DNA of 64,000 nt from Candidatus Omnitrophota bacterium (GTDB taxonomy: Bacteria; Omnitrophota; Gorgyraeia; Gygaellales; Profunditerraquicolaceae): contig JAKQWZ010000064.1 in assembly GCA_029561735.1 (NCBI GenBank), positions 3,583 through 67,582 of the forward strand, in the 5' to 3' direction. Positions 3,031 to 62,786 of this stretch are shown piece after piece. The first letter of the stretch is position 1, and every line of letters starts with the position of its first letter. The notes beneath the pieces are model-generated. The model was not told the DNA's origin. It saw only the letters and a list, made by a program, of their open reading frames with translations, and made no database searches. A program made the position numbers and the translations under genes.

Positions 3031-3086
3031 AATACCTGCAGCTATACGCTCGCCTAGACGTTAAACTAAAGCTCGCAGCTGCAGGT
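3031..3086. repeat. Hairpin repeat copy 2
   Basis: Same 20 nt and 16 nt arms as 2929-2984 with a different 20 nt core. It sits 102 nt from copy 1. Confidence 0.7.
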
Positions 3087-3094
3087 ATAAATTC

Positions 3095-3142
3095 GCGCAT
3101 ATAACTTACGTCGCCCATAAATGGGCTCCGTAAGTTATGCGC
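3095..3142. repeat. Long imperfect inverted repeat next to the tRNA-Phe 3' end
   Basis: GCGCATATAACTTACG...CGTAAGTTATGCGC encloses an inner GCCCA-TAAA-TGGGC stem. It lies 7 nt downstream of the tRNA-Phe 3' end on the minus strand. Confidence 0.6.
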
Positions 3143-3149
3143 TCATTTA

Positions 3150-3221
3150 TGCCGAGAGAGGGAATCGGACCCCCTACGCCGGCCTTTTCAGGGCCGCGCT
3201 CTACCAATGAGCTATCTCGGC
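3150..3221 (-). tRNA. tRNA-Phe (anticodon GAA)
   Basis: Reverse complement GCCGAGATAGCTCATTGGTAGAGCGCGGCCCTGAAAAGGCCGGCGTAGGGGGTCCGATTCCCTCTCTCGGCA folds by hand into a cloverleaf with anticodon loop CTGAAAA. No CCA is encoded. Confidence 0.9.
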
Positions 3222-3283
3222 TAAAAATATACTATAAAACGGAATTAGACAATTTTAACACAAAAGCCAAAAATAGCAACCAT

Positions 3284-3300
3284 AAAAAGCCGGCAGGGCT
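3284..3300 (-). terminator. Weak candidate intrinsic terminator after the NSS/lipoprotein operon
   Basis: Minus strand AGCC-CTGCC-GGCT followed by TTTTTAT, overlapping the stop codon. The stem is only 4 bp. Confidence 0.3.
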
Positions 3301-3679
3301 ATTTCATCTCCTCTATGATCTTAAGCAATACCTCCTGCGCCATAGCCATATCCGGAAAATGATGTTTTCTCGCAGCAACTTTTATCCTGCAAGTCTGCGT
3401 TGACAGGCGGGTAATGTATATCCAGACAAAACTGCTTCCGATCTTTGCCTTAATTATGCCGCCGGAGGAATCCTCTTCTTTAATCACCCCCCGGATACGC
3501 GAAACCGTCATAGCCGAGTCCCAGGCCGCCTCATACGGTTTTTCCGAATCTATCTGCACAGCATCTTTACTGACCGCATATACTCCCGCAGCCCCGACTG
3601 CGCCTCCAAAAATGAATAAACACCCGCAAACGCTCAAACAAAAAACAATAAGCAAACAAGCCAAAATAATTTTTTTCAT
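3299..3679 (-). CDS. Small lipoprotein of unknown function
   Basis: ORF 3299-3715. The internal ATG at 3679 gives MKKIILACLLIVFCLSVCGC, a signal peptide with lipobox. This ATG overlaps the TGA of the upstream mini-ORF (ATGA). Confidence 0.6.
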   Translation of the reverse strand: MKKIILACLLIVFCLSVCGCLFIFGGAVGAAGVYAVSKDAVQIDSEKPYEAAWDSAMTVSRIRGVIKEEDSSGGIIKAKIGSSFVWIYITRLSTQTCRIKVAARKHHFPDMAMAQEVLLKIIEEMK

Positions 3680-3780
3680 TTTATCTGCCTCCTCGAGAAA
3701 ACTTTTACAAAACAAAAAATAGCCAACCCGATAATCAAAGCCCAGCTAACAATAATAAATACCCAACCGTAAATATTCAT
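3676..3780 (-). CDS. 34-aa single-TM protein, candidate NSS-transporter small subunit (MetS-like)
   Basis: Hand translation gives MNIYGWVFIIVSWALIIGLAIFCFVKVFSRRQIK*. It starts 1 nt after the NSS stop and overlaps the next gene by ATGA. It is below the 60 aa cutoff of the ORF track. Confidence 0.55.
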   Translation of the reverse strand: MNIYGWVFIIVSWALIIGLAIFCFVKVFSRRQIK

Positions 3781-3781
3781 T

Positions 3782-5344
3782 TTACAATCCTGTTTTTTGC
3801 TTTTTCTTACGCCATGCGATTTTTACCAATATGGCTAAAATTATAAAAATGGAAAACAACCCTATGCGCGTTGCTATGATATAGATATGGTTTTGCGGCG
3901 CTACAGCCTTCATAAAGATGACCGAAAGCCATTCCTGCCATAACCAGACCCCTAAAATAACAAAAAGGAACAACGGCGTAACATATTTGATAATAAATTT
4001 ATAAATCCGCGGAACTCTCATATCCGCGCCTTTATGGATCTCATCCCAGGCTTTTTCCATCCCGAAAACCCAGGCAAAAAGTATAGTCTCAATTGCCGCA
4101 AAAAGCACTAAAAAGAATGTGCCGCCCCAGAAATCCAGCTCATCAACAACTCCGTTTTTCAGGAAGAATATCACCGGCTGGCATAAGATAAATGTGGTTA
4201 TACCGAATATCAATACAGCTTTGCCCCTCTTGATATCAAATTCGTCTTCTAAGAAAGCAACTGCCGGCTGGGCTAATGATACCGCAGATGTAATACCGGC
4301 CAAGAAAAGCAGAAAAAACCAGATAAATCCGAAGAGCGCATCTAAAGGCAGCCTGTTTAAAATCAAAGGCATAGTCACAAAACCCAGATTGAAAACCCCT
4401 GACTGGGCAATAGATTTAATATCCGCCGGGCCAAAAAATATAAAAGCCGCCGGGATAATTATGCTGCCGCCTAAAATAACCTCGGTGAATTCGTTTGTGC
4501 TTGAAGCGGTCAAGCCGGATAAAACCACATCATTGCCTTTAGATAAATAACTGGCATAAGTCAATATTACTCCGATCCCTACGCTGAGCGTAAAAAATAT
4601 CTGGCCAGCGGCCTCAAGCCAGACCTTGGCAGATTTTAAAGCCGAGAAATCCGGATTCCAGAGAAAGCCAAGTCCGTTTATAACATTCCACTGCGGGCGG
4701 GCAGGATCAGGTGCGCCGAGGGTAAATACCCTTATCATCAAAGCGATGCCGCAGATAAACAAAACCGGCATGGCCCATTTGCAGAGCCTTTCTATTCCGC
4801 CCCGTATACCGTAATAAATGACCCATATATTTACAGTAAATGTAACCAGAAAAAATAAATAGGCCCAGCCAATGCTTTGGAAATATTGATTTTTTTCTAT
4901 GCCCTGAAAAGCGCGCAAAAAACTCTGCATTGATGCCTGGTCAGCCAGGGCGCTATATTTTCCGAACAAAGCAAAAAAGCTATACGCCAGCGTCCAAGAT
5001 TCAATATAAGTATAATAGATAAATATGATCAGCGGCCCGAATATCCCAATAATGCCGAAATATTTTATAAACCTGTTCTTGCGCCAGAGGCTATGGAATA
5101 TTCCCGGTGCGGTACCGTGTTCAAAACCGCCGCCGAACCGGCCTAAAGTCCACTCAATCCACATCAACGGTATGCCTAAAAGCAGCAGTGCCACAAAATA
5201 AGGAATAAGAAAAGCGCCGCCTCCGTTAGAAGCCGCCTTGGCCGGAAACCGCAAAAAATTCCCCAGGCCTATAGCCGAACCTGCCACTGCCATAATAATA
5301 CCCAGGCGTGAACCCCAGCTGTCTCTTTTTTTACTCGCACTCAT
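3782..5344 (-). CDS. Sodium-dependent transporter, neurotransmitter:sodium symporter (NSS/SNF) family
   Basis: 520 aa. N-terminal WGSRLGIIMAVAGSAIGLGNFLRFP matches the NSS TM1 signature. About 11-12 TM helices. Confidence 0.9.
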   Translation of the reverse strand: MSASKKRDSWGSRLGIIMAVAGSAIGLGNFLRFPAKAASNGGGAFLIPYFVALLLLGIPLMWIEWTLGRFGGGFEHGTAPGIFHSLWRKNRFIKYFGIIGIFGPLIIFIYYTYIESWTLAYSFFALFGKYSALADQASMQSFLRAFQGIEKNQYFQSIGWAYLFFLVTFTVNIWVIYYGIRGGIERLCKWAMPVLFICGIALMIRVFTLGAPDPARPQWNVINGLGFLWNPDFSALKSAKVWLEAAGQIFFTLSVGIGVILTYASYLSKGNDVVLSGLTASSTNEFTEVILGGSIIIPAAFIFFGPADIKSIAQSGVFNLGFVTMPLILNRLPLDALFGFIWFFLLFLAGITSAVSLAQPAVAFLEDEFDIKRGKAVLIFGITTFILCQPVIFFLKNGVVDELDFWGGTFFLVLFAAIETILFAWVFGMEKAWDEIHKGADMRVPRIYKFIIKYVTPLFLFVILGVWLWQEWLSVIFMKAVAPQNHIYIIATRIGLFSIFIILAILVKIAWRKKKQKTGL

Positions 5345-5384
5345 AGCAAAGGTATCGCCAGCCTTTCTAAAGAATTGCCGGGCT

Positions 5385-5843
5385 TTATAATGATATCAAA
5401 AGATTTGTCTGCTCTTCATCGCCTTCGGATTTCAAAAAATCTTTATCCTCAATATAGCCAAATACCTTGGTAGCGATCAAATCCTTGGCAAATGAACTTG
5501 GCGAAGAAACTTCAACCTTAGTCTGTGCAGGGCTGATATTAGTGATAAATATCCCCACAGGGGTGGTATCTGTTTCGCTGACATAAATAGCAATTAGGTT
5601 ATTTTTGCTGTCCTCGGCGTAAATATAGGCTTTTATTATCTTAAGCGCCTCACGCACCCGGGTATTGCAGCTCGTATAATCAACATCAAACGTCTTGACT
5701 ATGGCGTCTTTACGGCCGTTCTCCAGCTCTTTTGTAGAGATACCCAGGATGCCTTTGCCGGTTTCCTTAAGAGAAGCACAACCTGAATACAAAACGGCAA
5801 ATGACAAAATACAAATGATAAAATAATAATTAAACTTGCGCAT
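5385..5843 (-). CDS. Lipoprotein of unknown function
   Basis: 152 aa with a signal peptide and lipobox (AVLYSGC|AS). It lies 8 nt downstream of the patatin gene. Confidence 0.6.
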   Translation of the reverse strand: MRKFNYYFIICILSFAVLYSGCASLKETGKGILGISTKELENGRKDAIVKTFDVDYTSCNTRVREALKIIKAYIYAEDSKNNLIAIYVSETDTTPVGIFITNISPAQTKVEVSSPSSFAKDLIATKVFGYIEDKDFLKSEGDEEQTNLLISL

Positions 5844-5851
5844 GATACCCC

Positions 5852-7858
5852 CTATTCGCTGATAACCTGTTTTATCCTGTTAATATGTTTGCGGGCTTCC
5901 TCTTCGCCTCTTTTGGCAAATTCTTCGGCGCGGTAAAGCTCAAGCCAGTGCAGCCCCTTGGTATCGGGGTGCAAAACCACGTCCGCAAGCCGCGATTCTT
6001 TACGGGCAAGTTCCGACTGCATTACCTCAACACTGCTGAATATTATATCGATTATATTAAATCTGAATTTCTCTTTCAAGAAGCTTTTTATACTGAATCC
6101 CTTGGGGTTCTTTGGCTTATTTGTATCCTTAGTAGCAGCCTCAAATTCATTGATGACGTCTTCTTTTGAAGGGGTTACGTTTACGGCAATTATCTTTTTT
6201 GCCCCTAAATATACCAGCGGCTCGACCGGCAAAGGATGGATTATCCCGCCGTCCAGCAGGAATTCCCCCTTAAATTTAAAAGGCATAAATACCCCGGGCA
6301 TAGAACAACTGGCCATAATCGCATCAACCAAAAGCCCGTCATCAATTATCCGCTGTTCTTTACTCCTTACGTCGCTGGCCACTATTTTTAACGGCAGCTT
6401 TATATCGCGGAAGGTCTTAGTGCCCAGCTGCTTTTTTAAAAAATTATAAAGCTTATTCCCCCGGATAAATCCCGAAAAGGGAAAGGTAAAGTCAACTTTG
6501 CCCCATACATCCTTTGGCTCTTTAAACTCCGCGGTTATTATCTTGAGGATATCGCCGCTTTTCATTCCTGACGCCCAAAGCCCGGCGATTACCGCCCCTA
6601 TGCTTGAGCCGACAATAATATCAATAGGGATATTTTCTTCTTCAAGCACTTTAAAAATACCGATATGGCAGAAACCATAAGCAAATCCGACCCCCAGCGC
6701 CAGGCCCACAAGGCAGTCTCCCAACTGACGGGAAATTCTTCTGACCGCTCTTGAATATTCCGAATCCGGGTTCTCCAGGATCTGCCTATCAGTTAATGCC
6801 TGTTCAATTTTAGGCAAAGTGGCGTAAATACTATGCCCGAGCAGCGCGATTTGCTGTTTAGTGCTTAGTTGGGCAAGTTTATATTCATTAACCAATACGT
6901 TTATCTTGGAATCCTGAAAATTAAATTCGTTTTTTAACCTGCCTATCAGCTCGCGCGTCCTGATGAGGTCCTGTTCTTGGGGGCTGGTCAGAATATGTAT
7001 AAATTCCGACTGATTTAGCACGGCGATTATCGACCAGTCCATCACCGAAGGCAGGTCAAGCATCACATAATGATAATCATTCACCACAATACTGATAACC
7101 TCAACTATTTTTTTTACCCAAGACTGGTCCCCGGGTTCATACCAGAAGCATATAACATCAACTCCTGTATTATCTTTGAGTAAAAATTCATCTAAGGCGC
7201 CTGAACTGATATTTTTCAAAACGCTCAAATCGCAAACCTTATATCCTTCAGATATGCCCAGTCTGGCAGGCAAAGTATGCATTTTAGGCGCAGGGCACAC
7301 ATCAAGAATAACGACCTTCTTATGGGTCTGGCTGGACAGGCTTAAGGCCAGATTGAGAGCATATACGGTCTTGCCCGACTGAGAATAAGAACTAAATACT
7401 GAAATGACCGTGCTTTCAAAAATCGTCTTCTGATGTATATCCTTATTCTTCAGCCTGCGCGATAAAGTCGAGCTTAAATCAATTGCCAGGCGCGGGACAC
7501 TTTGTAAGACAAAATTAAAATCCTCCCTTCTAATCACCAAAAGCATGCAGTCATTCATGGCTTTTGCGGATACCGAATGCGGCTCTCCGGTAATTAGTGA
7601 GATTATGCCGAAATATTTCCCGCGGTGCAGGTACTCCAACGGCACATCATCAGAATTGGCGTTTTTGGAATAAATTATTACTCTTCCAAATACTATACAA
7701 TAGAAAGCATCAGGCGGGGCGCCCTCCTGATAAATAACCTGCCCCTTTTGATAAGGAACAAGTACGGATTTATCTCTGATTATCTGATTTTCCTGCTCAG
7801 TAAGGCTGGCGAATAAAGGCAGGTCCTTAAGAATGGCGTCTTTATTTATTGTGTCCAT
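5852..7858 (-). CDS. Three-domain protein: cyclic-nucleotide-binding domain / ParA-CpaE-like P-loop domain / patatin-like phospholipase
   Basis: 668 aa. The N-terminus has a CAP-type cNMP fold (FASLTEQE...GQVIYQEGAPPDAFYCIVFGRV...YFGIISLITGEPHSVSAKA). The middle has SQSGKT, VVILDV and YVMLDLPS motifs. The C-terminus has GSSIG (GxSxG) and LLDGG (DGG), but an altered oxyanion box GVGFAYG. Confidence 0.8.
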   Translation of the reverse strand: MDTINKDAILKDLPLFASLTEQENQIIRDKSVLVPYQKGQVIYQEGAPPDAFYCIVFGRVIIYSKNANSDDVPLEYLHRGKYFGIISLITGEPHSVSAKAMNDCMLLVIRREDFNFVLQSVPRLAIDLSSTLSRRLKNKDIHQKTIFESTVISVFSSYSQSGKTVYALNLALSLSSQTHKKVVILDVCPAPKMHTLPARLGISEGYKVCDLSVLKNISSGALDEFLLKDNTGVDVICFWYEPGDQSWVKKIVEVISIVVNDYHYVMLDLPSVMDWSIIAVLNQSEFIHILTSPQEQDLIRTRELIGRLKNEFNFQDSKINVLVNEYKLAQLSTKQQIALLGHSIYATLPKIEQALTDRQILENPDSEYSRAVRRISRQLGDCLVGLALGVGFAYGFCHIGIFKVLEEENIPIDIIVGSSIGAVIAGLWASGMKSGDILKIITAEFKEPKDVWGKVDFTFPFSGFIRGNKLYNFLKKQLGTKTFRDIKLPLKIVASDVRSKEQRIIDDGLLVDAIMASCSMPGVFMPFKFKGEFLLDGGIIHPLPVEPLVYLGAKKIIAVNVTPSKEDVINEFEAATKDTNKPKNPKGFSIKSFLKEKFRFNIIDIIFSSVEVMQSELARKESRLADVVLHPDTKGLHWLELYRAEEFAKRGEEEARKHINRIKQVISE

Positions 7859-9079
7859 TTATATAAGTGTGCCTGTCCTGCAGACTTCGGAATATTTTTT
7901 TGCGCTTTCCCTGACGGTGCGTTTGAAATTGGCGTAATCCATCTCCACAATACCGAAACGGGGGCCAAAACCCTTATCCCACTCAAAATTATCCAGCAAA
8001 GACCAATATAGATAACCCAGGACATTGACCCCGGAGTTTATCGCCCGGTGCAATTGTGTAAGATGATCGCGTATGTAATTCCATCTCTGACCGTCATCAA
8101 GAGTGCAAATGCCGTTTTCTAATATAAAAACAGGCAGATTGTATTTTTTTATACCTGTCAATAAACTATACAGTCCTTGCGGGTATATATCCCAGCCCAT
8201 TGTATTCTTGGGCAGGGGCTTTTCGGGCTTACGGCTGGTATCCAGCGAAAAATTCCTTAAACTCCAGCCGCCGACATCCACGACGCTGCGAGTATAATAA
8301 TTCACGCCGATATAATCTAGCGATTTACGTCTGATCAATTTATCCAGTATAGCCAAATTAAACCATTGCTGCCTCAGTTTAGATGCGATATTATTCTTTA
8401 AATTTTCCGGGCTGGCGACAAAAGCCATCATATTATGGGCAATACTGACTCTGGGCCGGCCCAGATTATTGCGTTTATAATAGCTGTGAATAAAGCGGTA
8501 TGCCTCCACATGCGCATTAACCATATTTCCGGTTGCCACCCAGGCCTTTAGAAAGGATTTCTTTTGCGGAGGCCACTGCCCCATTATATAACCGTGCGAT
8601 ATCAAAACCATAGGCTCGTTAATAGTCACCCAGAACTGCACATGCTTACCCAGGGCTTCCACAACTTTATTGCAATAGCGCAGAAAATAACCTGCGGAGG
8701 CTTTATTTTCCCAACCTCCAAGCCGGGAAAACCAGATAGGATTAGTAAAATGATGCAGGGTAACAACAGGTTCTATATTGCGTTCTTTTAAGGCGAGTAT
8801 TACCTGAAGATAGTGGGCAAGCTCTAAATCAGAGAATGTGTGTTCCTGCGGCTGAATCCTGGCCCATTCGATTGAAAGGCGATGGGCATTATGATGCAGG
8901 CCTTTGACAATATCAAAGTCCTGTTCAAAAAGTTCATAATGGCAGCATGCTTTGCCTGACCTATCCTTTTGTCCAGTAACGATTTCCCATTCCCACCAGT
9001 CACTGTTAGAATTATCGCCTTCGACTTGATAAGCCGAAGTAGCCGCGCCCCAGAGGAAACCTTCGGGAAACTTTATCAT
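7859..9079 (-). CDS. Glycoside hydrolase family 1 (beta-glucosidase-like)
   Basis: 406 aa. FLWGAATSAYQVEG, TINEP (acid/base Glu) and ILENG (nucleophile Glu) are present. The stop codon directly abuts the patatin gene start. Confidence 0.9.
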   Translation of the reverse strand: MIKFPEGFLWGAATSAYQVEGDNSNSDWWEWEIVTGQKDRSGKACCHYELFEQDFDIVKGLHHNAHRLSIEWARIQPQEHTFSDLELAHYLQVILALKERNIEPVVTLHHFTNPIWFSRLGGWENKASAGYFLRYCNKVVEALGKHVQFWVTINEPMVLISHGYIMGQWPPQKKSFLKAWVATGNMVNAHVEAYRFIHSYYKRNNLGRPRVSIAHNMMAFVASPENLKNNIASKLRQQWFNLAILDKLIRRKSLDYIGVNYYTRSVVDVGGWSLRNFSLDTSRKPEKPLPKNTMGWDIYPQGLYSLLTGIKKYNLPVFILENGICTLDDGQRWNYIRDHLTQLHRAINSGVNVLGYLYWSLLDNFEWDKGFGPRFGIVEMDYANFKRTVRESAKKYSEVCRTGTLI

Positions 9080-9098
9080 GGGCTTATTATAGCATCAG

Positions 9099-9127
9099 AC
9101 AAAAAAAATCCCAACAAAAATGTTGGG
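9099..9127 (-). terminator. Intrinsic terminator, expression platform of the c-di-GMP riboswitch
   Basis: Minus strand CCCAAC-ATTTTT-GTTGGG followed by A then T8. It lies about 20 nt upstream of the GH1 ATG. Confidence 0.7.
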
Positions 9128-9140
9128 ATATATAAACTAC

Positions 9141-9257
9141 TGCCGATAAAGGCCTGCTACCTTTACTGCGGCAACCCAGCCACCATATTACCCCACTTCG
9201 GTAATTTAGGTCTGTGGCTTTGTGTCCCCGCCTTTCGGCGGGTTTACCCTTATCGGC
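9141..9257 (-). promoter_or_regulatory. c-di-GMP-I (GEMM-I) riboswitch aptamer
   Basis: The minus strand reads GCCGATAAGGGTAAACCCGCCGAAAGGCGGGGACACAAAGCCACAGACCTAAATTACCGAAGTGGGGTAATATGGTGGCTGGGTTGCCGCAGT...CCTTTATCGGC. It shares the GGYAAACC, GAAA-capped hairpin, GGGACNCAAAGCC and GGYNGCNGGGUUNCCG blocks of the Vc2-type aptamer, as I recall them. Confidence 0.8.
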
Positions 9258-9263
9258 AATTAA

Positions 9264-9292
9264 AGTATACCACGTACCCCTGATGTTTTCAA
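9264..9292 (-). promoter_or_regulatory. Sigma-70-type promoter of the riboswitch transcript
   Basis: Minus strand TTGAAA-17 nt-TATACT. The predicted TSS is about 9257, the first base of the outer helix of the aptamer. Confidence 0.65.
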
Positions 9293-9314
9293 GGGTACGT
9301 GAATTTTATTTATT

Positions 9315-9749
9315 TTATTGCTGAACCACAGCTGCAGTAGCCAGGTATTTGCCCAGAACCTGCCATGTCTTAGGGCCAACCTTGCCGTCAACCGCAAGCC
9401 CGTTGTCTTTCTGAAATGCTTCAATGGCCTTCTTTGTCTTAGGCCCTATCTTACCGTCAATAGAACCAAGATAATAATTCGCATTCTTAAGTGCGGTCTG
9501 AATATCCATTGCCGATGGCTTAAACGGGCCTGAAGGCGGCAGCTGTTCAAGCTTTGACTCCGGGGCAGCTGCATATGTCACTACCGGGCTTACTTCAGCC
9601 GCCGGGACAGTTGAAACAGCTGTCTGCGCCGTTAACGCCTCCATTGAAGTAGGCTCCTGTAAAGCCGAAAGGTCAGATTCTTTTTTACCGCAACCTGCCA
9701 AATAAATCCCTATTGCCGCAATCGCGATGATAAAAACAAATTTTTTCAT
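9315..9749 (-). CDS. Lipoprotein with a C-terminal peptidoglycan-binding (PG_binding_1-like) domain
   Basis: 144 aa. Lipobox YLAGC|GK. The repeated DGKIGPKT / DGKVGPKT motif is typical of PG-binding domain 1. Confidence 0.75.
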   Translation of the reverse strand: MKKFVFIIAIAAIGIYLAGCGKKESDLSALQEPTSMEALTAQTAVSTVPAAEVSPVVTYAAAPESKLEQLPPSGPFKPSAMDIQTALKNANYYLGSIDGKIGPKTKKAIEAFQKDNGLAVDGKVGPKTWQVLGKYLATAAVVQQ

Positions 9750-23166: not shown

Positions 23167-24110
23167 TATATTATCTCAAGCATCCGGTCGATTGCTTTTT
23201 TAGCGCGCAGGCGCACATCGTCGCTTACCCGGACCTCCTCCTTCATTTCCTCTAAAGCCCAGAGAATCTTCTCTTCTGTGGTCCTTTTCATGTTCGGGCA
23301 TACTGCACGCTCCGAAGCCGGATAAAATTCCTTGGTCGGGTTATCTTGCTTAAGCCTGTAGACCAAGCCCACCTCTGTCCCGACAATAAATTCCTTTGTT
23401 TCGGTTGCTTTGACAAATTTAGACATCTGGCTTGTAGAAAGCACGGCATCAGCCATAGAAAGTACCGCGGGCAAGCATTCCGGATGGGCCATAACCTTGG
23501 CGAAAGGATGGAATTTTTTCTCCCTTTTAATGTCTTCGGGTAAAATCTTTATATGCGTCGGACAGAAGCCATTCCAAACTATCAGCTTCCTTCCGGTAAC
23601 CTTAGTAACATAATCGGCAAGATATTTATCCGGAATAAAAATTATCTCTTTTTTCCCTTTTAGAAAATCCACCACACCGACAGCATTTGTCGAAGTGCAA
23701 CAATAATCAAGTTCTGCCTTAATCTCAGCCGAAGTATTCACATATCCGACCACCACAGCTTCCGGATGTTCTTTCTTAAGTTTTCGCAAGTCTGAAACAG
23801 AAATCATATTTGCCATAGGGCAAGCCGCATTAATATCCGGCATGATCACTTTCTTATCCGGGCAAAGTATTGAAGCAGTCTCAGCCATAAAATGCACGCC
23901 GCAAAATACTATCACTTTAGCGCTTGTCTTGGCTGCCTGACGGCTAAGTTCCAGCGAATCTCCGCGAAAATCCGCCACATCCTGGACCTCCGGAAGTTGG
24001 TAATTATGCGCCAGGATTACGGCATTTCTTTTTTTCTTCAATTCAAGTATTTTCTTATCTAAATCCTGTTTTATCTTATTCTTTAACATTTTTATCTTCC
24101 ACCTTATCAA
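23166..24110 (-). CDS. nadA: Quinolinate synthase
   Basis: 314 aa. AVILAHNYQ, three conserved Cys regions and length fit NadA. The start may be ATG 24089 (MLKNKIK). Either start overlaps the mnmA end. Confidence 0.85.
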   Translation of the reverse strand: MIRWKIKMLKNKIKQDLDKKILELKKKRNAVILAHNYQLPEVQDVADFRGDSLELSRQAAKTSAKVIVFCGVHFMAETASILCPDKKVIMPDINAACPMANMISVSDLRKLKKEHPEAVVVGYVNTSAEIKAELDYCCTSTNAVGVVDFLKGKKEIIFIPDKYLADYVTKVTGRKLIVWNGFCPTHIKILPEDIKREKKFHPFAKVMAHPECLPAVLSMADAVLSTSQMSKFVKATETKEFIVGTEVGLVYRLKQDNPTKEFYPASERAVCPNMKRTTEEKILWALEEMKEEVRVSDDVRLRAKKAIDRMLEII

Positions 24111-25149
24111 TTATTCCTCCGCCATATACTTGATCGCCTTTGTAGAAAACGGCTGACTGGCCGGGAGTTATTGAAAACTGCGGTTTTCTAAACCTGACCA
24201 TAAGTTTATTTTTAAACGGGATAATTTCGGCAGGCGATTCTGCATGATTATATCTTATCTTAACCTTTAAAGCAACTTTCTTTTTTATCCTGCCGCATAG
24301 ATAGTGCGGATCCTTAACCAGAAAAACGCTTTTAAAAGCATCCTGCTTTGGGCCGACAATAATACGGTTATTCCGGCAGTCCAGCTTAATAACGTAGACC
24401 GGATACCCTCTGGCAATTCCTAATCCTTCGCGCTGGCCTATAGTATAAAACGGAATACCTTTATGCGTGCCTAAAATATTCCCCTGAACATCTACGACTT
24501 TGCCCGGCTTATTTTCTACGCCGGCATAACTTCTTAGGAATTCACGGTAATTGTTCCCGGGGAGAAAGCATATCTCCTGGCTTCCCGGCTTATCAGCTAC
24601 AGATAAACCGTAATTTCTTGCCAGGCGGCGCACCTGATCTTTAGTATATTCGCCTAAAGGAAATAGAATATGTTTTAACTGGTCCGGTTTAATACGATAG
24701 ATAAAATAAGACTGGTCTTTCTTTAAGTCCCTGGCTTTTTTAAGCAGCCCATTTTCTATTCTCGCATAGTGCCCTGTAGCAAGAAATCCGGCGTCCAGCG
24801 ACCTAGCTTTATTCAGCAATAAATCAAACTTGAGGAACTGATTGCATTTTACGCAAGGGTTCGGAGTACGCCCGGATAAATATTCTTTGCAAAAATCTTT
24901 AATCACGCGCTCTTCAAGTTGCTTCTTCATATTTAACACATAGTGGCGTATACCCAGTTTATATGCGACTCTTGCGGCATCGCCTATACTTTCAACGCTG
25001 CAACATGGGGATTTGCGCTTATTCCCGGCAGCCAGATTGAAACACATAGTAATACCTATAACTTCGTATCCCCGGCTCTTTAAAAGCGCCGCAGCAACCG
25101 AAGAATCCACTCCACCGCTCATTGCCACTACTACACGATCTTTGATCAT
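24076..25149 (-). CDS. mnmA: tRNA 2-thiouridine(34) synthase
   Basis: 357 aa. PP-loop VAMSGGVDSSVAA, CVKCN and typical C-terminal barrel motifs. Confidence 0.9.
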   Translation of the reverse strand: MIKDRVVVAMSGGVDSSVAAALLKSRGYEVIGITMCFNLAAGNKRKSPCCSVESIGDAARVAYKLGIRHYVLNMKKQLEERVIKDFCKEYLSGRTPNPCVKCNQFLKFDLLLNKARSLDAGFLATGHYARIENGLLKKARDLKKDQSYFIYRIKPDQLKHILFPLGEYTKDQVRRLARNYGLSVADKPGSQEICFLPGNNYREFLRSYAGVENKPGKVVDVQGNILGTHKGIPFYTIGQREGLGIARGYPVYVIKLDCRNNRIIVGPKQDAFKSVFLVKDPHYLCGRIKKKVALKVKIRYNHAESPAEIIPFKNKLMVRFRKPQFSITPGQSAVFYKGDQVYGGGIIDKVEDKNVKE

Positions 25150-32902: not shown

Positions 32903-33826
32903 CTATAGGTTAAATAACTCTGTGCTTAAATATCTTTCGCCTGTATCCGGCAATATTACTACAATGAGCTTGCCTTTATATTCTTTGCGCCTGGCAATTT
33001 CCATCGCCGCAAAAACTGCTGCACCCGAAGAGATCCCGGCTAATATACCTTCCTGTTTTGCCAGCTTTCCGGCAATCAAACCGGCATCTTCATTAGAAAC
33101 CTGTATAATCTCATCAATAATTTTAACATTTAATACATCCGGAATAAAACCTGCGCCGATCCCCTGGATCTTATGCGCACCCGGCTTGCCTCCGGATAAC
33201 ACCGGGGAATCTTTTGGTTCCACCGCAATTGCCTTAACCGAAGGTTTCTTTTTCTTCAATACCTCTGCGATTCCGGTAAGCGTGCCTCCAGTACCCACGC
33301 CGGCGATAACCGCATCAACCTTTCCGTCGGTATCATTCCAAATCTCAAGGGCGGTAGTCTTACGGTGCACCTGCGGATTTGACGGATTCTTAAACTGCTG
33401 CGGCATATAAAAATTTGCGTTCTTTCTAGCTATATCTTCGGCTTTTTTTACAGCTCCGGACATGCCTTCTGCTCCGGCAGTTAGAATAATCTCGGCTCCG
33501 AGTAAGGATAAAAGCCTACGCCTTTCTATGCTCATTGTCTCAGGCATAGTTAGAATTAATTTATAGCCTTTTACTGCCGCGACAAAAGCCAGGGCAATAC
33601 CGGTATTGCCGCTTGTCGGCTCGACAATCACCGTGCCTTTTTTAAGCAAGCCTTCTTTTTCCGCCTGCTCAATCATACTTAGCCCAATCCTGTCTTTGAC
33701 CGAAGAGCAGGGATTAAACGATTCGAGCTTCAGAACTATTTGCGCAACGCAACCTTCGGATAAACGGTTAAGCCGCACCAGCGGGGTATTACCTATAAGT
33801 TCAGTTATGTTTTTTGCAATTTTCAT
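32903..33826 (-). CDS. cysK: Cysteine synthase A (O-acetylserine sulfhydrylase)
   Basis: 307 aa. [10 protein letters not shown] carries the PLP-binding Lys. TSGNTG and [10 protein letters not shown] are also present. Confidence 0.9.
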
Positions 33827-40633: not shown

Positions 40634-40834
40634 TTAGTATCCAAGGCATTCTTTGGCTGCCTTACACCATTTTGCGCAGGATTGCGGCATCTGTCTGTAG
40701 ATCCTTGTTCCGCATTCAGGACAACGCACTCCGGGCTCATCGGAAAAAATCTCCGCATTATAGCCGCAGAAATTACAGGTTATAATTTCGGCCTTTATTT
40801 TGCGGCTATCTTGCCCCGGGCATTTATTTAACAT
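40634..40834 (-). CDS. Small Cys-rich zinc-ribbon-like protein
   Basis: 66 aa with CNFCG...CPECG plus C-terminal SCAKWCKAAKEC. It overlaps the Rrf2 gene end by 11 nt. Confidence 0.55.
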   Translation of the reverse strand: MLNKCPGQDSRKIKAEIITCNFCGYNAEIFSDEPGVRCPECGTRIYRQMPQSCAKWCKAAKECLGY

Positions 40835-41246
40835 TGGCTTTTTTGCTTGCTTTCATTAAAACACTCAATGTAACACGCTTAAATTGACTATAAGCAAATT
40901 CCTCAATCTTGATTATTCTCTTTCTTAAAGCACAGCTCTTTACATTGGGGCAGGGTGACTTCTTAAACATGCATTTATTTATCTTAAGCCCCCCCTGAAA
41001 AATTCTTATCAGGTCTAACAGAAATATTTTATCTGCCGGCCTTGCCAAGATAAAACCCCCGCCTGTACCCTTATGAGACAAAAGTATATTATGCTGGTTT
41101 AACACCTGGAGTATCTTCCTTAAAAACTGCCGGGGTATGCGCAGCTTATTGACCAGCTCCGGCACAGATACTGTCCTTTGGCGTTGAGCTGCAATATAAC
41201 AGGCAGCCCTTAAAGCATAATCGGTATTCCTGGTTATAAGCTTCAT
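40824..41246 (-). CDS. Rrf2-family transcriptional regulator (NsrR/IscR-like)
   Basis: 140 aa. N-terminal wHTH (TDYALRAACYIA) and a Cys triad (CMFKKSPCPNVKSC). Confidence 0.85.
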   Translation of the reverse strand: MKLITRNTDYALRAACYIAAQRQRTVSVPELVNKLRIPRQFLRKILQVLNQHNILLSHKGTGGGFILARPADKIFLLDLIRIFQGGLKINKCMFKKSPCPNVKSCALRKRIIKIEEFAYSQFKRVTLSVLMKASKKANVK

Positions 41247-59736: not shown

Positions 59737-60651
59737 CTATTTGCTGGGTTTACTTTTCCACCGGCGGTGGACCCAACCCCATTCCGCAGGATATTTCCTT
59801 ATATAAGACTCTATAATATCGGTAAGGCGCTGTATATTAATAAGTATTGTATCACGTTCATCTTTTCCTTCAACTAAAATTAAAGGCGGCTCAAAGAAAA
59901 TCTTATGCCGGTCATTGCCCTGGCGGACAATAAAACTTGGCAGTATTCTGGCTTTGGTGCGCTGGGCCAAAACAACCGGCCCGGTAGCTGTAGCCGCCTG
60001 AACACCAAAAAATTTTACAAATACTCCGGAAGTGCCGAAATTCTGGTCAATAGGGATAAACAGTATACTGTTATTTCTTAAGGCCCGGATAGATTCCTCA
60101 ACACATGCCTTACGCGGCTGGCTGTAAATGGTCTGTATGCCCATATTATTTCGTTTCTTAAGGAAAAAATTTTCTGTCCTGCCGTCGCGCATCTGGCGCA
60201 TGATCCCGGCGGTCTTATATCCTTCAAGGCTGAGTTTCGCCATCATCAAAGCAAAATTGCCAAAATGAGCGCTGACCAGTATAACACCGTTGCCTTCAGA
60301 CAAGGCCTTGTCAAGGTTTTCTTTGCCTTCAAAATCAACCTGTTCTTTTAATGCCCGGGGCCTTTCCATTAAATACATAAGCTCAACCGCGGACTTAGCC
60401 ATATTTACAAAACAATCTTTGGCTATTTGGCGCAATTCCTTTGGGGATTTTTCCTTCTCAAAAGCCATGGAAAGGCTGTCAAAAGCTATCTCGCGCTGTT
60501 TACCGACAAATTTATATGCCAGCCAGGCAACCGAACGGGCAAACCCGTAAATCATGCTTCCGGGAAGCAGTTTGACCGCAAAAGAACAGAATCTCAGGCC
60601 GACCCAGGCTAAATAACGCTGAAAATTTTTAGATATTTTTTTAAAATCCAT
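59737..60651 (-). CDS. Lysophospholipid/lipid A acyltransferase (LpxL/HtrB family)
   Basis: 304 aa. N-terminal TM helix, VSAHFGNF (HX4D-like region) and overall length fit the LpxL family. Confidence 0.7.
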   Translation of the reverse strand: MDFKKISKNFQRYLAWVGLRFCSFAVKLLPGSMIYGFARSVAWLAYKFVGKQREIAFDSLSMAFEKEKSPKELRQIAKDCFVNMAKSAVELMYLMERPRALKEQVDFEGKENLDKALSEGNGVILVSAHFGNFALMMAKLSLEGYKTAGIMRQMRDGRTENFFLKKRNNMGIQTIYSQPRKACVEESIRALRNNSILFIPIDQNFGTSGVFVKFFGVQAATATGPVVLAQRTKARILPSFIVRQGNDRHKIFFEPPLILVEGKDERDTILINIQRLTDIIESYIRKYPAEWGWVHRRWKSKPSK

Positions 60652-60711: not shown

Positions 60712-61365
60712 CTACAACTTCTTACCCCAACAGCTCAAAAAAAGCTCTTTGCCCAAAAGATAATCAAAATATGTGACCTTCTGATCATATAGCCGGGAAA
60801 ATCCGGATGAAGCAAACAGCCTCTTTGCCCCGTCAGTAAATGTCCAGGCGCATACGCCTTTGATATTTCTATCTTTTAGATATTCGCAAAATGCGTCAAG
60901 TAATTTATGGCCGATCCCCATGCCCCTGAACCCGTCGGCTATATTTATATGGAAATGTGCCGGGTATTCCTGATTAAAATCCGGCCGGCTGAATTCCCTC
61001 CTGATCAGGCTGCGCAGCGAATAAAACGCAAAGCGCCACGTGCGCGCCTTAAGCAATAATCCACGCAATATGCCTTTACGTATTATCCCGGGCATAATAT
61101 TCTTGTCAATTACCCGGTGTGAACCGGCTGTATCAACAGAACCCATGATATAGCCGACTACGCCTGATGAATATTCGGCGACAAAAACCGATTCAGGCTC
61201 ATAATCAAGGTAGTAACCGGACAGCATATCAGCTAAAACTACCCTGTCCGGAAGAAAGGCCTCTCCGCTTTTACCCAGAAATGCCGTATCAACAGCAATG
61301 TCCCTTAATGCGCTTTTATCTTCGTGTTTGTACGGCCTGATAATAATCCGGTTTTCTTGGGCCAT
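60712..61365 (-). CDS. GNAT-family N-acetyltransferase
   Basis: 217 aa. FRGMGIGHKLL matches the acetyl-CoA-binding Q/RxxGxG/A motif. Confidence 0.75.
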   Translation of the reverse strand: MAQENRIIIRPYKHEDKSALRDIAVDTAFLGKSGEAFLPDRVVLADMLSGYYLDYEPESVFVAEYSSGVVGYIMGSVDTAGSHRVIDKNIMPGIIRKGILRGLLLKARTWRFAFYSLRSLIRREFSRPDFNQEYPAHFHINIADGFRGMGIGHKLLDAFCEYLKDRNIKGVCAWTFTDGAKRLFASSGFSRLYDQKVTYFDYLLGKELFLSCWGKKL

Positions 61366-62786
61366 TATTTTAAGATAATTTTACGGAATGCGCTGGCATC
61401 ATGCTGCAGCATGTTGGTCTGCGCCCGGGCAGAAACCAAAATAAAATCAGGATCCCCTAAAACTTTTAGCGGTATATTAAACACCACTTCTTTCTCGCCG
61501 AATTCCATAACCGCGCCTTCAGCGTTAATTTGAGTATTGGCATCAAATACCGATAAAGCCTTGCGCTGCAGGATGACACAGATCTTAGGCATCTGCTCAA
61601 AAGGAGTTTTTTTACTGTAGCCGAAAATATACACCATGGCGCTAAACCGGGAATTGGCTTCCTTGGGTTTAGAGATACCGATGATAAAGGAGCCGTCTTT
61701 AAGCTCATAACGTACGCGCCCCTTGCCCCTTAAGACCAAGGCGTCTTCGGCAGACTCGCCCTCGGAGCTGCCGCGCATCAAATCATCAAGGATCCTGGCC
61801 CCCATTAAAAGTTTGCCTTCATTCGGCTGATTCCTGTCAATGAGCCGCGCAACCGGATAATCTCCGAATAATTCATTTCTGCGGGCAAACGCAAGAAGAT
61901 AAAATGCGCTGGATTCAGTCTGGGTCTTATTGCATAGTATGGCCATATATTTTTTGTTCAATTCTTCGGCGCTAAGTTCAAATTTTTTCCATTGCACAGC
62001 TGACCCCCGGAACTGCTCAGGGGGCATAAGCCACAGCTCCGGATGATAATGGCGCGGGACAGGCCAGCCATAACTGTGCACCAGGTATGAATGGACCTGG
62101 GGCCTGCCTATAAATTTTTCCGTATCAGCCAAAGCGATCTCTAAAAATAGATAAAAAGCACGGTGGTCAGGATTAGTATCGGCAGGGTGAGAAACAAATA
62201 TTTTATTCGGCTTATAATCCATTAAAACTCGTTTCATGTCGCTAAGGATGCTTTCTCCGGTATAAGAAGCGCCGTAAGACAGGTCACCCTTATAAGGAAC
62301 ACTGGAAATACGGGTAAGCCAGCTCATGTAGGGCCGGGAACGTTGCCAGTATCGGGCAAATACGGCAAAAGTCCCGAAATCCGGATATCCCAAGAACAAA
62401 AGCTTATCCTCACCAAGGCCGAGTACTTTTGCCGCCTTTATGGCTTCCTGCTTGCGTAATTTCCCCAGATGTATAAAAGCGCTTCTTCTAACCACAAGGC
62501 GTTTTTCATAAACAATAAACGCAAACTCATTGTGGTCGCCGTTGGTCAGATAAACGATCCGTACCTGCGCCCCGCTCTTTAAAGCATCCTGAATCACCCC
62601 TGCGCAGGCTATTGCTTCATCGTCAGGGTGAGGGGCAAGTATCAAAACGCGGTCGCTATTCTTAAATTTATCTATTGCAGGAATACCCGCTGCCGGAGAT
62701 TGCGCAACAGGGCTGGCTTGCGCCCAGGCGCAGGCTGTAAGGCAAAAGGTAATTAAAACCGTTAAAAAGGTCCTTTGGATTCTCAT
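61365..62786 (-). CDS. Secreted PIG-L/LmbE-family deacetylase with a large C-terminal extension
   Basis: 473 aa. Signal peptide, LAPHPDDEAIACAG and HPDH motifs. The C-terminal extension of about 200 aa is uncharacterised. Confidence 0.7.
   Translation of the reverse strand: MRIQRTFLTVLITFCLTACAWAQASPVAQSPAAGIPAIDKFKNSDRVLILAPHPDDEAIACAGVIQDALKSGAQVRIVYLTNGDHNEFAFIVYEKRLVVRRSAFIHLGKLRKQEAIKAAKVLGLGEDKLLFLGYPDFGTFAVFARYWQRSRPYMSWLTRISSVPYKGDLSYGASYTGESILSDMKRVLMDYKPNKIFVSHPADTNPDHRAFYLFLEIALADTEKFIGRPQVHSYLVHSYGWPVPRHYHPELWLMPPEQFRGSAVQWKKFELSAEELNKKYMAILCNKTQTESSAFYLLAFARRNELFGDYPVARLIDRNQPNEGKLLMGARILDDLMRGSSEGESAEDALVLRGKGRVRYELKDGSFIIGISKPKEANSRFSAMVYIFGYSKKTPFEQMPKICVILQRKALSVFDANTQINAEGAVMEFGEKEVVFNIPLKVLGDPDFILVSARAQTNMLQHDASAFRKIILK

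Follow-up and report, generated by a model that had tools for sequence, protein, structure and literature searches.

The window analyzed herein is a stretch of 64,000 nucleotides (nt) from a Candidatus Omnitrophota bacterium, in which a cyclic di-GMP (c-di-GMP) riboswitch of class I (GEMM-I) precedes a cluster of six genes beginning with a GH1 glycosidase and a patatin-domain protein. The cluster, the riboswitch, and the lipoprotein gene upstream of it (PGB) are all encoded on the minus strand. With moderate confidence, we propose on sequence grounds that the cluster runs from a promoter of its own, P2, and that the riboswitch represents an insulated or auxiliary input, not the main gate. P2 would account for most transcription of the cluster, yielding a leaderless polycistronic mRNA that does not depend on the riboswitch, and transcripts from the riboswitch promoter P1 would mostly end at an intrinsic terminator, T1, as a discrete c-di-GMP-binding RNA of ~155 nt. 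Because the cluster would run from P2 and most P1 transcripts would stop at T1, the riboswitch is assigned this insulated or auxiliary role. Read-through of T1 would add a minor leadered isoform, possibly in a c-di-GMP-dependent manner. The elements concerned are the following (window coordinates; sigma-70 promoter matches are scored out of 12 consensus positions).

9264-9292, minus strand: promoter P1 of the riboswitch cassette; TTGAAA, 17 nt, TATACT, with TGG before it (extended -10); 10/12 match
9167-9258, minus strand: c-di-GMP-I (GEMM-I) aptamer; full-length match to Rfam RF01051, 82.4 bits versus a gathering threshold of 35, E=1.1e-14
9247-9257, minus strand: S5, GCCGAUAAGGG, 5' strand of the closing helix and predicted 5' end of the transcript; nearly invariant in aligned aptamers
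9142-9152, minus strand: S3, CCUUUAUCGGC, 3' strand of the closing helix; kept in cassette-bearing leaders
9140-9174, minus strand: candidate hairpin opposing the closing helix (anti-P1), formed by the aptamer tail (UUGCCG..UAAAGG) with S3; from local folding
9101-9129, minus strand: intrinsic terminator T1, AUCCCAACA-UUUU-UGUUGGGAU and then a U-tract; from a terminator scan (hairpin 9108-9129 plus U8)
9086-9114, minus strand: promoter P2, TTGGGA-17-TGCTATAAT; sigma-70-like, 10/12 plus an extended -10 TG

The terminator and predicted promoter ahead of GH1

For comparison, a profile of the 668-residue patatin protein was used to collect 80 loci, each from another GTDB species and most with an Omnitrophota annotation. 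Homologs carrying a source name are mostly labeled Candidatus Omnitrophota or Omnitrophica, and the protein is identical on assembly contig L001, where the gene order is the same. The labels L001-L115 denote homologous or metagenome contigs compared with the window. Riboswitches were searched for by a covariance model built from six aptamers, and presence or absence was judged in the 76 loci with sufficient upstream sequence (29 with, 47 without); the calls cross-checked against Rfam agreed for 7/7 positives and 11/11 negatives. Terminator folding covers 26 leaders, the comparison of closing-helix pairings 37 sequences, and the covariation alignment 31 homologs.

T1 is part of the minimum free energy (MFE) fold in 26/26 leaders; when its formation is forbidden, 11-20 kcal/mol are lost and no compensating structure takes its place. 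When transcripts are truncated ahead of the 3' arm of T1, its 5' arm is wholly unpaired in 19/26 leaders. Constrained folding of the 26 leaders yielded no alternative partner, i.e., no antiterminator, for T1, and the complementarity of the T1 arms to the upstream leader equals that in shuffled leaders (duplex energies; mean z -0.08 and +0.26). Hence, no gating mechanism is visible, since T1 has no alternative pairing with the aptamer in these leaders. This weighs on the classical explanation, in which transcription starts at P1, c-di-GMP alters leader termination, either at T1 or in U-rich sequence past S3, read-through carries the six genes, and P2 is weak or serves another role. Such a gate would fit a genuine, conserved aptamer with a strong promoter of its own and a terminator after it, 30 nt ahead of the GH1 ATG; the missing antiterminator speaks against it, and we regard it as unlikely.

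The T1 hairpin was found once per locus in 59/80 loci and at this junction only, which rules out a genome-wide repeat. Its loop ranges from 3 to >60 nt across loci and includes structured inserts; such variable spacing of the arms argues against a protein operator and fits an RNA hairpin. The same hairpin follows directly after the PGB stop codon in riboswitch-less relatives.

The 3' arm of T1 doubles as the -35 element of P2 (TTGGGA, 9114-9109). Herein, the U-tract of T1 is placed in the 17-nt spacer, and the -10 element TGCTATAAT at 9094-9086 ends 6 nt ahead of the GH1 ATG, which has no Shine-Dalgarno sequence. A start 7 nt past the -10 element would be the A of this ATG; therefore, a leaderless mRNA is predicted. 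The strict P2 pattern is found in 52/76 loci (18/29 with the riboswitch and 34/47 without), and an ATG lies 4-13 nt past the -10 element in 42 loci. As a control, a similar -10 element occurs at the start of the NSS transporter gene of the cluster in only 2/47 loci. Riboswitch-less species show the succession hairpin, U-tract, TGnTATAAT, N6-10, and ATG directly after the PGB stop. Most loci failing the strict pattern are variants, e.g., L037, L063, and L017, in which the hairpin sequence differs and a hairpin, a U-tract, and TGATATAAT are still found. The -10 element is also retained in L015 and L030, where a different, leadered gene is inserted behind it; this speaks for a promoter and against a signal for translation. 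Compared over the homologous sites of L003-L082, the sequence of the T1/P2 module is conserved among species whose proteins are only ~58% identical. Because it stands before GH1 in most riboswitch-less relatives, it looks ancestral and would be older than the riboswitch cassette.

The sequence-only reading of this DNA had the riboswitch gate the downstream genes. The riboswitch itself is real; the gating is called into question by the intervening P2 and by a T1 that lacks an antiterminator in the leaders folded. An independent promoter, which that reading had named as evidence against its proposal, is indeed present in the sequence between T1 and GH1 as a promoter-like element, conserved with or without the riboswitch. 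T1 and P2 both occur where the riboswitch is absent and persist in species that carry it, which counts further against control by read-through from P1, as does a GH1 ATG that, lacking a Shine-Dalgarno sequence, suits a leaderless and not an internal start.

The overlap of the two elements also permits an explanation by transcriptional interference: polymerases coming from P1 would end within P2 or cross it and thereby occlude it, so that the state of the riboswitch tunes P2 negatively. The release site of T1 (the U-tract) is the spacer of P2, its 3' arm is the -35 element, and P1 is close to consensus. The argument is, however, purely architectural, and species without the riboswitch show this overlap too, with transcription of PGB taking the part of P1. 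We consider this explanation highly improbable.

TATAAT-like hexamers located 6-10 nt before an ATG without a Shine-Dalgarno sequence were also seen at other genes that follow larger gaps (24076-25149, 32903-33826, 40824-41246, 59737-60651, and 61365-62786; all minus strand). Judged by these motifs, this Omnitrophota genome may make frequent use of leaderless mRNAs. Literature searches linking Omnitrophota with riboswitches or Omnitrophica with leaderless mRNAs found nothing relevant.

The aptamer and its closing helix

The match of the aptamer to RF01051 is far beyond chance, and the riboswitch is genuine. Among its homologs, 98.5% of the cells at paired positions are paired and 13/22 pairs show compensatory changes, in an alignment that was fitted to the covariance model and thus favors the modeled structure; 0/500 shuffles reach the observed values, and slid controls are 30-47% paired. 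The equivalents of Vc2 G20, A47, and C92 (AAGG/U, GCAAAGCC, and GGGUUGCC) are kept in the window and in nearly all homologs, as assigned by alignment to the Rfam consensus (contact positions per PMC4744006). Covariation and conserved contacts thus point clearly to a functional RNA. Many homologous aptamers contain insertions of 40-120 nt in the loop of the first hairpin or in the second hairpin (L066 6372-6595, L016 6452-6648, and L082 6463-6653) and reach 140-224 nt, compared with ~100 nt in the window. Two aptamers, L080 6441-6538 and L027 5212-5313, score best on the GGC-variant model RF03167 (65 and 62.5 bits; gathering threshold 59), but their G20/A47/C92 equivalents are canonical and the assignment is probably due to model competition.

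A second c-di-GMP-I aptamer, equipped with a promoter of its own (TTGAAA/TGTATACT), was observed in L038 at 5088-5184. Downstream of it lies a gene for a secreted protein of 169 amino acids (5269-5778, Shine-Dalgarno-led), followed by an open reading frame (ORF) of 109 amino acids (5835-6164) that appears PilZ-like by eye.

The promoter of the cassette is kept together with the aptamer: the module CTTGAAAA-N17-(TG)TATACT-N7-GCCGATAAAGG is found in 27/29 cassette loci as well as in the window. The predicted start at ~G9257 is the first base of S5. A 14-base pair (bp) stem-loop at 9270-9302 (minus strand), detected in the scan for terminator-like structures just past the PGB stop codon, overlaps the -35 element of P1 and may act as the PGB terminator; several relatives have comparable hairpins ahead of P1.

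The aptamer is closed by an 11-bp helix, in which GCCGAUAA(A/G)GG (9257-9247) pairs with CCUUUAUCGGC (9152-9142), both strands being almost invariant. The S5:S3 pairing is part of the MFE fold of 36/37 sequences, and in L038 the helix carries compensatory C-to-U and G-to-A changes (GCUGAU with AUCAGC). The 3' tail of the aptamer (GCCGA..AAGG) mimics S5 and pairs locally with S3 in 35/37 sequences, with a mean of -17.7 kcal/mol for this hairpin versus -17.0 kcal/mol for the S5:S3 duplex. In the folding models, the tail:S3 hairpin is a candidate for sequestering the equivalents of C92/C93. When folded in full context, the closed S5:S3 form is ahead by ~10.7 kcal/mol. An equilibrium switch between the closing helix and the opposing hairpin was therefore rejected, as the closed form wins by this amount in 36/37 sequences; only a kinetic role is plausible. 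Neither conformer of S3 touches T1.

In 23/37 sequences, at least six of the 10 nt that follow S3 are U, which offers a second site at which leader termination could be regulated. Together with the pairing of S3 that would disrupt the binding pocket and is kept in 35/37 sequences, this U-rich stretch counts in favor of the classical gate. Against this stands that S3 is paired in both conformers, which leaves the site beside it without discrimination, and that the stretch is U-poor in the window (5/10) and in L082 and L039 (2-3). A regulated terminator at this position is hence unlikely.

The cassette could also be a gene in its own right: P1 to T1 would encode a stand-alone c-di-GMP-sensing small RNA (sRNA), stable and ~155 nt long, in which the exchange of S5:S3 for tail:S3 hides or exposes the 5' end, tuning stability or buffering c-di-GMP with no cis effect on GH1. 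The predicted start at the first nucleotide of S5 suits this explanation, as do the capping of the RNA by the 5'/3' closing helix and a strong terminator, the recurrence of the layout at unrelated loci, and the repeated loss of the cassette while the cluster stays (both described below); c-di-GMP-stabilized Vc2 sRNAs provide a precedent (10.1101/617340). However, the advantage of the closed form even without ligand makes an equilibrium switch unlikely, no conserved single-stranded region hints at a target in trans, and the constant placement at one junction could equally mean a function in cis. We regard it as rather improbable; it overlaps with the insulated arrangement proposed here and differs only by denying any contribution of read-through.

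Two further ideas on these strands were dismissed. That the cassette is a mobile element with the 11-bp inverted repeat as its ends is contradicted by promoter P1, which lies outside the repeat, and by the variation of the aptamers, which looks vertically inherited. Pairing of S3 with the GH1 start (AUGAUAAAG) is coincidental, since the N-terminal codons of GH1 differ among relatives.

The gene cluster and its relatives

The six genes of the cluster and the features at its borders are the following.

7859-9079, minus strand: GH1 glycosidase, 406 amino acids (Pfam Glyco_hydro_1)
5852-7858, minus strand: cNMP_binding/CbiA (ParA)-like/patatin protein, 668 amino acids (Pfam and NCBIfam)
5385-5843, minus strand: lipoprotein LP1, 152 amino acids, with visible signal sequence and lipobox Cys
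3782-5344, minus strand: NSS (sodium:neurotransmitter symporter family) transporter, 520 amino acids (Pfam SNF)
3676-3780, minus strand: hydrophobic ORF of 34 amino acids after the NSS gene, conserved beside NSS
3299-3679, minus strand: DUF3568 lipoprotein LP2, 126 amino acids (Pfam DUF3568)
3284-3300, minus strand: weak hairpin at the cluster end (AGCC/GGCU; 4-bp stem plus T5), seen in the sequence
9315-9749, minus strand: upstream neighbor PGB, a lipoprotein with a peptidoglycan-binding domain (PG_binding_1, E=5.7e-19), outside the cluster and given for context

The junctions from GH1 to LP2 measure 0, 8, 40, 1, and -4 nt, the last being the overlap of the LP2 start codon with the 34-residue ORF; a Shine-Dalgarno sequence (GAGGAGG) precedes the LP2 start. 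A census of ORFs of at least 90 amino acids over the whole window shows an extreme strand bias (63/65 on the minus strand), and 40/64 junctions are <=40 nt. Five short junctions in series have a chance of ~0.62^5, or ~0.09, and are not unusual in the window. Tight packing on the same strand is the default of the whole window, and short gaps are therefore little evidence for one regulated unit. The terminator scan found no strong terminator within the cluster, and the only hairpin past LP2 is the weak one at 3284-3300, beyond which tRNA-Phe (3150-3221; promoter-like site at 3279-3252) and then tRNA-Thr follow. A promoter-like site within the patatin gene (6079-6051, minus strand; TTGAAA-17-TATAAT, 11/12) is non-conserved, reaching >=10/12 in 3/46 loci, and probably arose by chance. 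The six genes plausibly form one polycistron; the lack of a strong terminator or conserved promoter inside the cluster would also suit transcripts that read through from P1, as the classical gate demands.

The sequence-only reading had described a seven-gene operon; six ORFs are present, and its own list also names six. The gap lengths it gave, including the overlap of 4 nt, match exactly those listed above, and its gene order (GH1, cNMP/ParA-like/patatin, lipoprotein, NSS, a 34-residue product, lipoprotein) agrees with the ORFs. Its statement that no terminator precedes that at 3284-3300 holds for strong terminators inside the cluster; the strong hairpin at 9108-9129 with U8, between the aptamer and GH1, had been missed.

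Gene order in the relatives was compared by tblastn and follows a collinear backbone of MFS, (EIIA), PGB lipoprotein, GH1, patatin, LP1, a variable segment, NSS, the 34-residue ORF, and LP2, with a second MFS gene after LP2 in many loci. The PGB gene is syntenic in most relatives. The distance from the GH1 stop to the patatin start is -4 to +3 nt in 55/69 loci, the two genes abutting in the window, and in nearly every relative LP1 comes next after patatin, usually within ~20 nt. GH1, patatin, and LP1 are a conserved, translationally coupled core in >70 species. In most relatives, 0.3-3 kb of functionally unrelated genes on the same strand separate LP1 from NSS (among them MazG-like, YjeF_N, a 77-residue ORF, a HycI-like protease, a thioesterase, and a TPR protein; e.g., L018 4494-6154). 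None of these interval genes was found elsewhere in the 64-kb window, which would have lost the MazG-like, YjeF_N, 77-residue, and HycI-like genes from this position. The 40-nt junction of LP1 and NSS is lineage-specific, only L009 being similar among the relatives. NSS is usually coupled to whichever gene precedes it, and an own -10-like element is confined to the 2/47 loci of the control above. Of the single GH1-patatin-NSS unit that had been suggested, the polycistron of six genes is plausible; in most relatives, unrelated genes split the NSS module from the GH1-patatin-LP1 core.

The covariance model detects the riboswitch in 29/80 loci (29/76 informative species, ~40%), scattered over the tree and always between the PGB lipoprotein and GH1. 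Where GH1 is missing (L023, L026, and L027), it directly precedes the patatin gene, and L015 has two genes inserted between the riboswitch and patatin. The gap between PGB and GH1 in the 47 riboswitch-less loci is typically only ~90-170 nt. When patatin proteins are arranged in a neighbor-joining tree, species with the riboswitch are distributed over deep branches; those without it fall into two large derived clades and ~10 scattered tips. The simplest reading is an ancestral riboswitch that was lost repeatedly, for which a neighbor-joining tree of a single protein is weak evidence. A scan of metagenomes for the 5' strand, filtered by the model, added ~10 further examples at the GH1-patatin locus and also returned aptamers with the same 5' GCCGATAAAGG at other loci. 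The synteny check proposed earlier for GH1-patatin-NSS thus came out positive for GH1-patatin behind the riboswitch, in 29 GTDB species and ~10 metagenome contigs. Yet gene order is equally conserved in the 47 riboswitch-less species, extending to the flanking genes on both sides; hence, synteny is uninformative on control by the riboswitch.

The GH1 protein matches PF00232 with 290.9 bits (cutoff 22.6; E=1.7e-86), is of the short type, and has no apparent signal peptide. In the GH1 family, NEP is the catalytic acid/base motif and ENG the nucleophile motif; both are present in the translation (TINEP and ILENG). The nearest solved structure, 1VFF, aligns over the full length (E=1.7e-94), and we take it to be a membrane-bound β-glycosidase of Pyrococcus horikoshii that prefers long-alkyl glucosides. 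Both proteins align end to end and are of the short GH1 type with ~410-420 amino acids, but the Omnitrophota protein falls below the NCBIfam equivalog cutoffs for β-glucosidase (290.8 versus 478.5), and a shared substrate preference is not implied.

The patatin protein has hundreds of Omnitrophota homologs with ~60% identity and consists of a cyclic-nucleotide-binding-like domain (PF00027, 73.4 bits), a ParA/MinD-like P-loop (GKT) domain, and a patatin-like lipid hydrolase domain. The motifs of the catalytic dyad, GSSIG (GxSxG) and DGG, are intact, with G417, S419, G421, D536, G537, and G538 invariant in 18 homologs; the glycine-rich oxyanion motif is atypical (GVGFAYG). The canonical phosphate-binding cassette of the PKA type reads FGELAL..PRAATV, i.e., FGE..PR[AST]A with a Glu and an Arg. 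Here, residues 83-98 are FGIISLITGEPHSVSA, and the canonical Glu and Arg are replaced by Ile (I85, nearly invariant among homologs) and His (H94, invariant), which makes the binding of cAMP or cGMP doubtful. The GxSxG serine and DGG aspartate are shared with RssA, PlpD, and NTE-type proteins, and homologs are labeled 'NTE family protein' by JGI. In contrast to NTE-type proteins with cNMP-binding and patatin domains, a ParA/MinD-like domain is inserted between the two and the cassette has diverged. As a glycosidase and a lipid acyl hydrolase are tightly coupled, and as 1VFF is the nearest solved GH1 structure, the pair probably acts on a glycolipid-like substrate by analogy.

Of the two lipoproteins, LP2 matches Pfam DUF3568 over the cutoff (E=9.3e-6) and LP1 weakly and under it (E=0.007); BLASTP gives no significant similarity between them, so they are not close paralogs. 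The NSS transporter (Pfam SNF, 193 bits, E=9.7e-57) is ~80% identical in relatives. The 34-residue ORF lies beside it in ~35 loci with 38-67% identity; no Pfam or NCBIfam model matched it, a MetPS-like small subunit having been considered.

Recurrence of the layout and known systems

Several observations weigh against the proposal that the cluster runs from P2 with the riboswitch insulated from it. The conserved hairpin of S3 with the mimic of S5 suggests a real conformational switch, for which no output was found. Conservation of the 5'-arm sequence of T1 is explained only indirectly, by its complementarity to the -35 element. Strong purifying selection on the aptamer and its ligand contacts, together with the constant placement at one junction, fits a cis-regulatory role. 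Thermodynamic folding leaves room for kinetic, protein-assisted, or Rho-dependent control of T1 read-through, and P2 and the leaderless start are predicted solely from consensus and conservation.

The succession of promoter, aptamer, terminator, promoter, and gene was found at three unrelated loci from the metagenome scan as well.

L098, ~3050-3260: TGTTATAAT, 9 nt, and the ATG of a protein of 100 amino acids
L089, reverse strand: terminator with U8 and TTGTAA-17-TGTTATAAT, upstream of an HtpX-like protease
L115, reverse strand: terminator and TTGACA-17-TAGAAT, upstream of a pilin-like gene with a PilC-like neighbor

This layout may thus be a recurring design and not a one-off. More tentatively, and with doubt, it can be suggested that Omnitrophota and some co-occurring uncultured bacteria use c-di-GMP-I aptamers as self-contained units, composed of a promoter, an aptamer closed by its 5' and 3' ends, a constitutive terminator, and the promoter of the neighboring gene. 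Such units would act as free sRNAs for sensing or buffering, or would control the adjacent promoter via termination-coupled events, and would not be conventional switches of a 5' untranslated region.

If the proposed arrangement is true, annotating a downstream regulon merely because a riboswitch precedes it would be misleading in this lineage, the aptamer being insulated from the cluster by a terminator that also supplies the -35 element of a leaderless promoter. It would further suggest that the terminator/promoter combination is a compact module and that leaderless starts are widespread among Omnitrophota. The GH1-patatin pair would be a candidate module of glycolipid turnover in a phylum whose envelope biology is barely known. 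The cargo had been called an unusual regulon; it is unfamiliar, yet in character for the GEMM motif, which was named for genes of the environment, membrane, and motility (PMC4744006).

The arrangement would add a phylum without cultured-model genetics to the few cases, Vc2 and Bc1, of class I aptamers that do not simply gate the next gene. In Vibrio cholerae, tfoY is expressed independently of its riboswitch from promoters located inside Vc2 and 3' of it, and sRNAs containing Vc2 are stabilized by c-di-GMP (10.1101/617340). Both systems combine a class I aptamer with promoters upstream and downstream of or within it and with riboswitch-independent transcription, which is predicted in the present case; Vc2 sRNAs do accumulate, whereas the corresponding RNA is predicted here from sequence. 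Moreover, Vc2 sRNAs arise without termination, whereas here a canonical terminator after the aptamer overlaps a promoter and a leaderless mRNA is predicted. Bc1 of Bacillus thuringiensis binds c-di-GMP, but its downstream terminator is ligand-insensitive and masks the response, and its authors concluded that it cannot regulate downstream genes (PMC11218506). Common to both is a terminator downstream of the aptamer that stays folded, here in the predicted structures. Bc1 has two terminators and no reported promoter before the gene, whereas the cassette described here has one strong terminator doubling as a promoter. Terminating GEMM-I switches such as Cd1 of Clostridioides difficile share the aptamer class, a downstream terminator hairpin with a U-tract, and an envelope- or environment-related cargo (PMC4744006). 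In these switches, however, the terminator competes with aptamer sequences, whereas in the Omnitrophota cassette it is structurally insulated from them.

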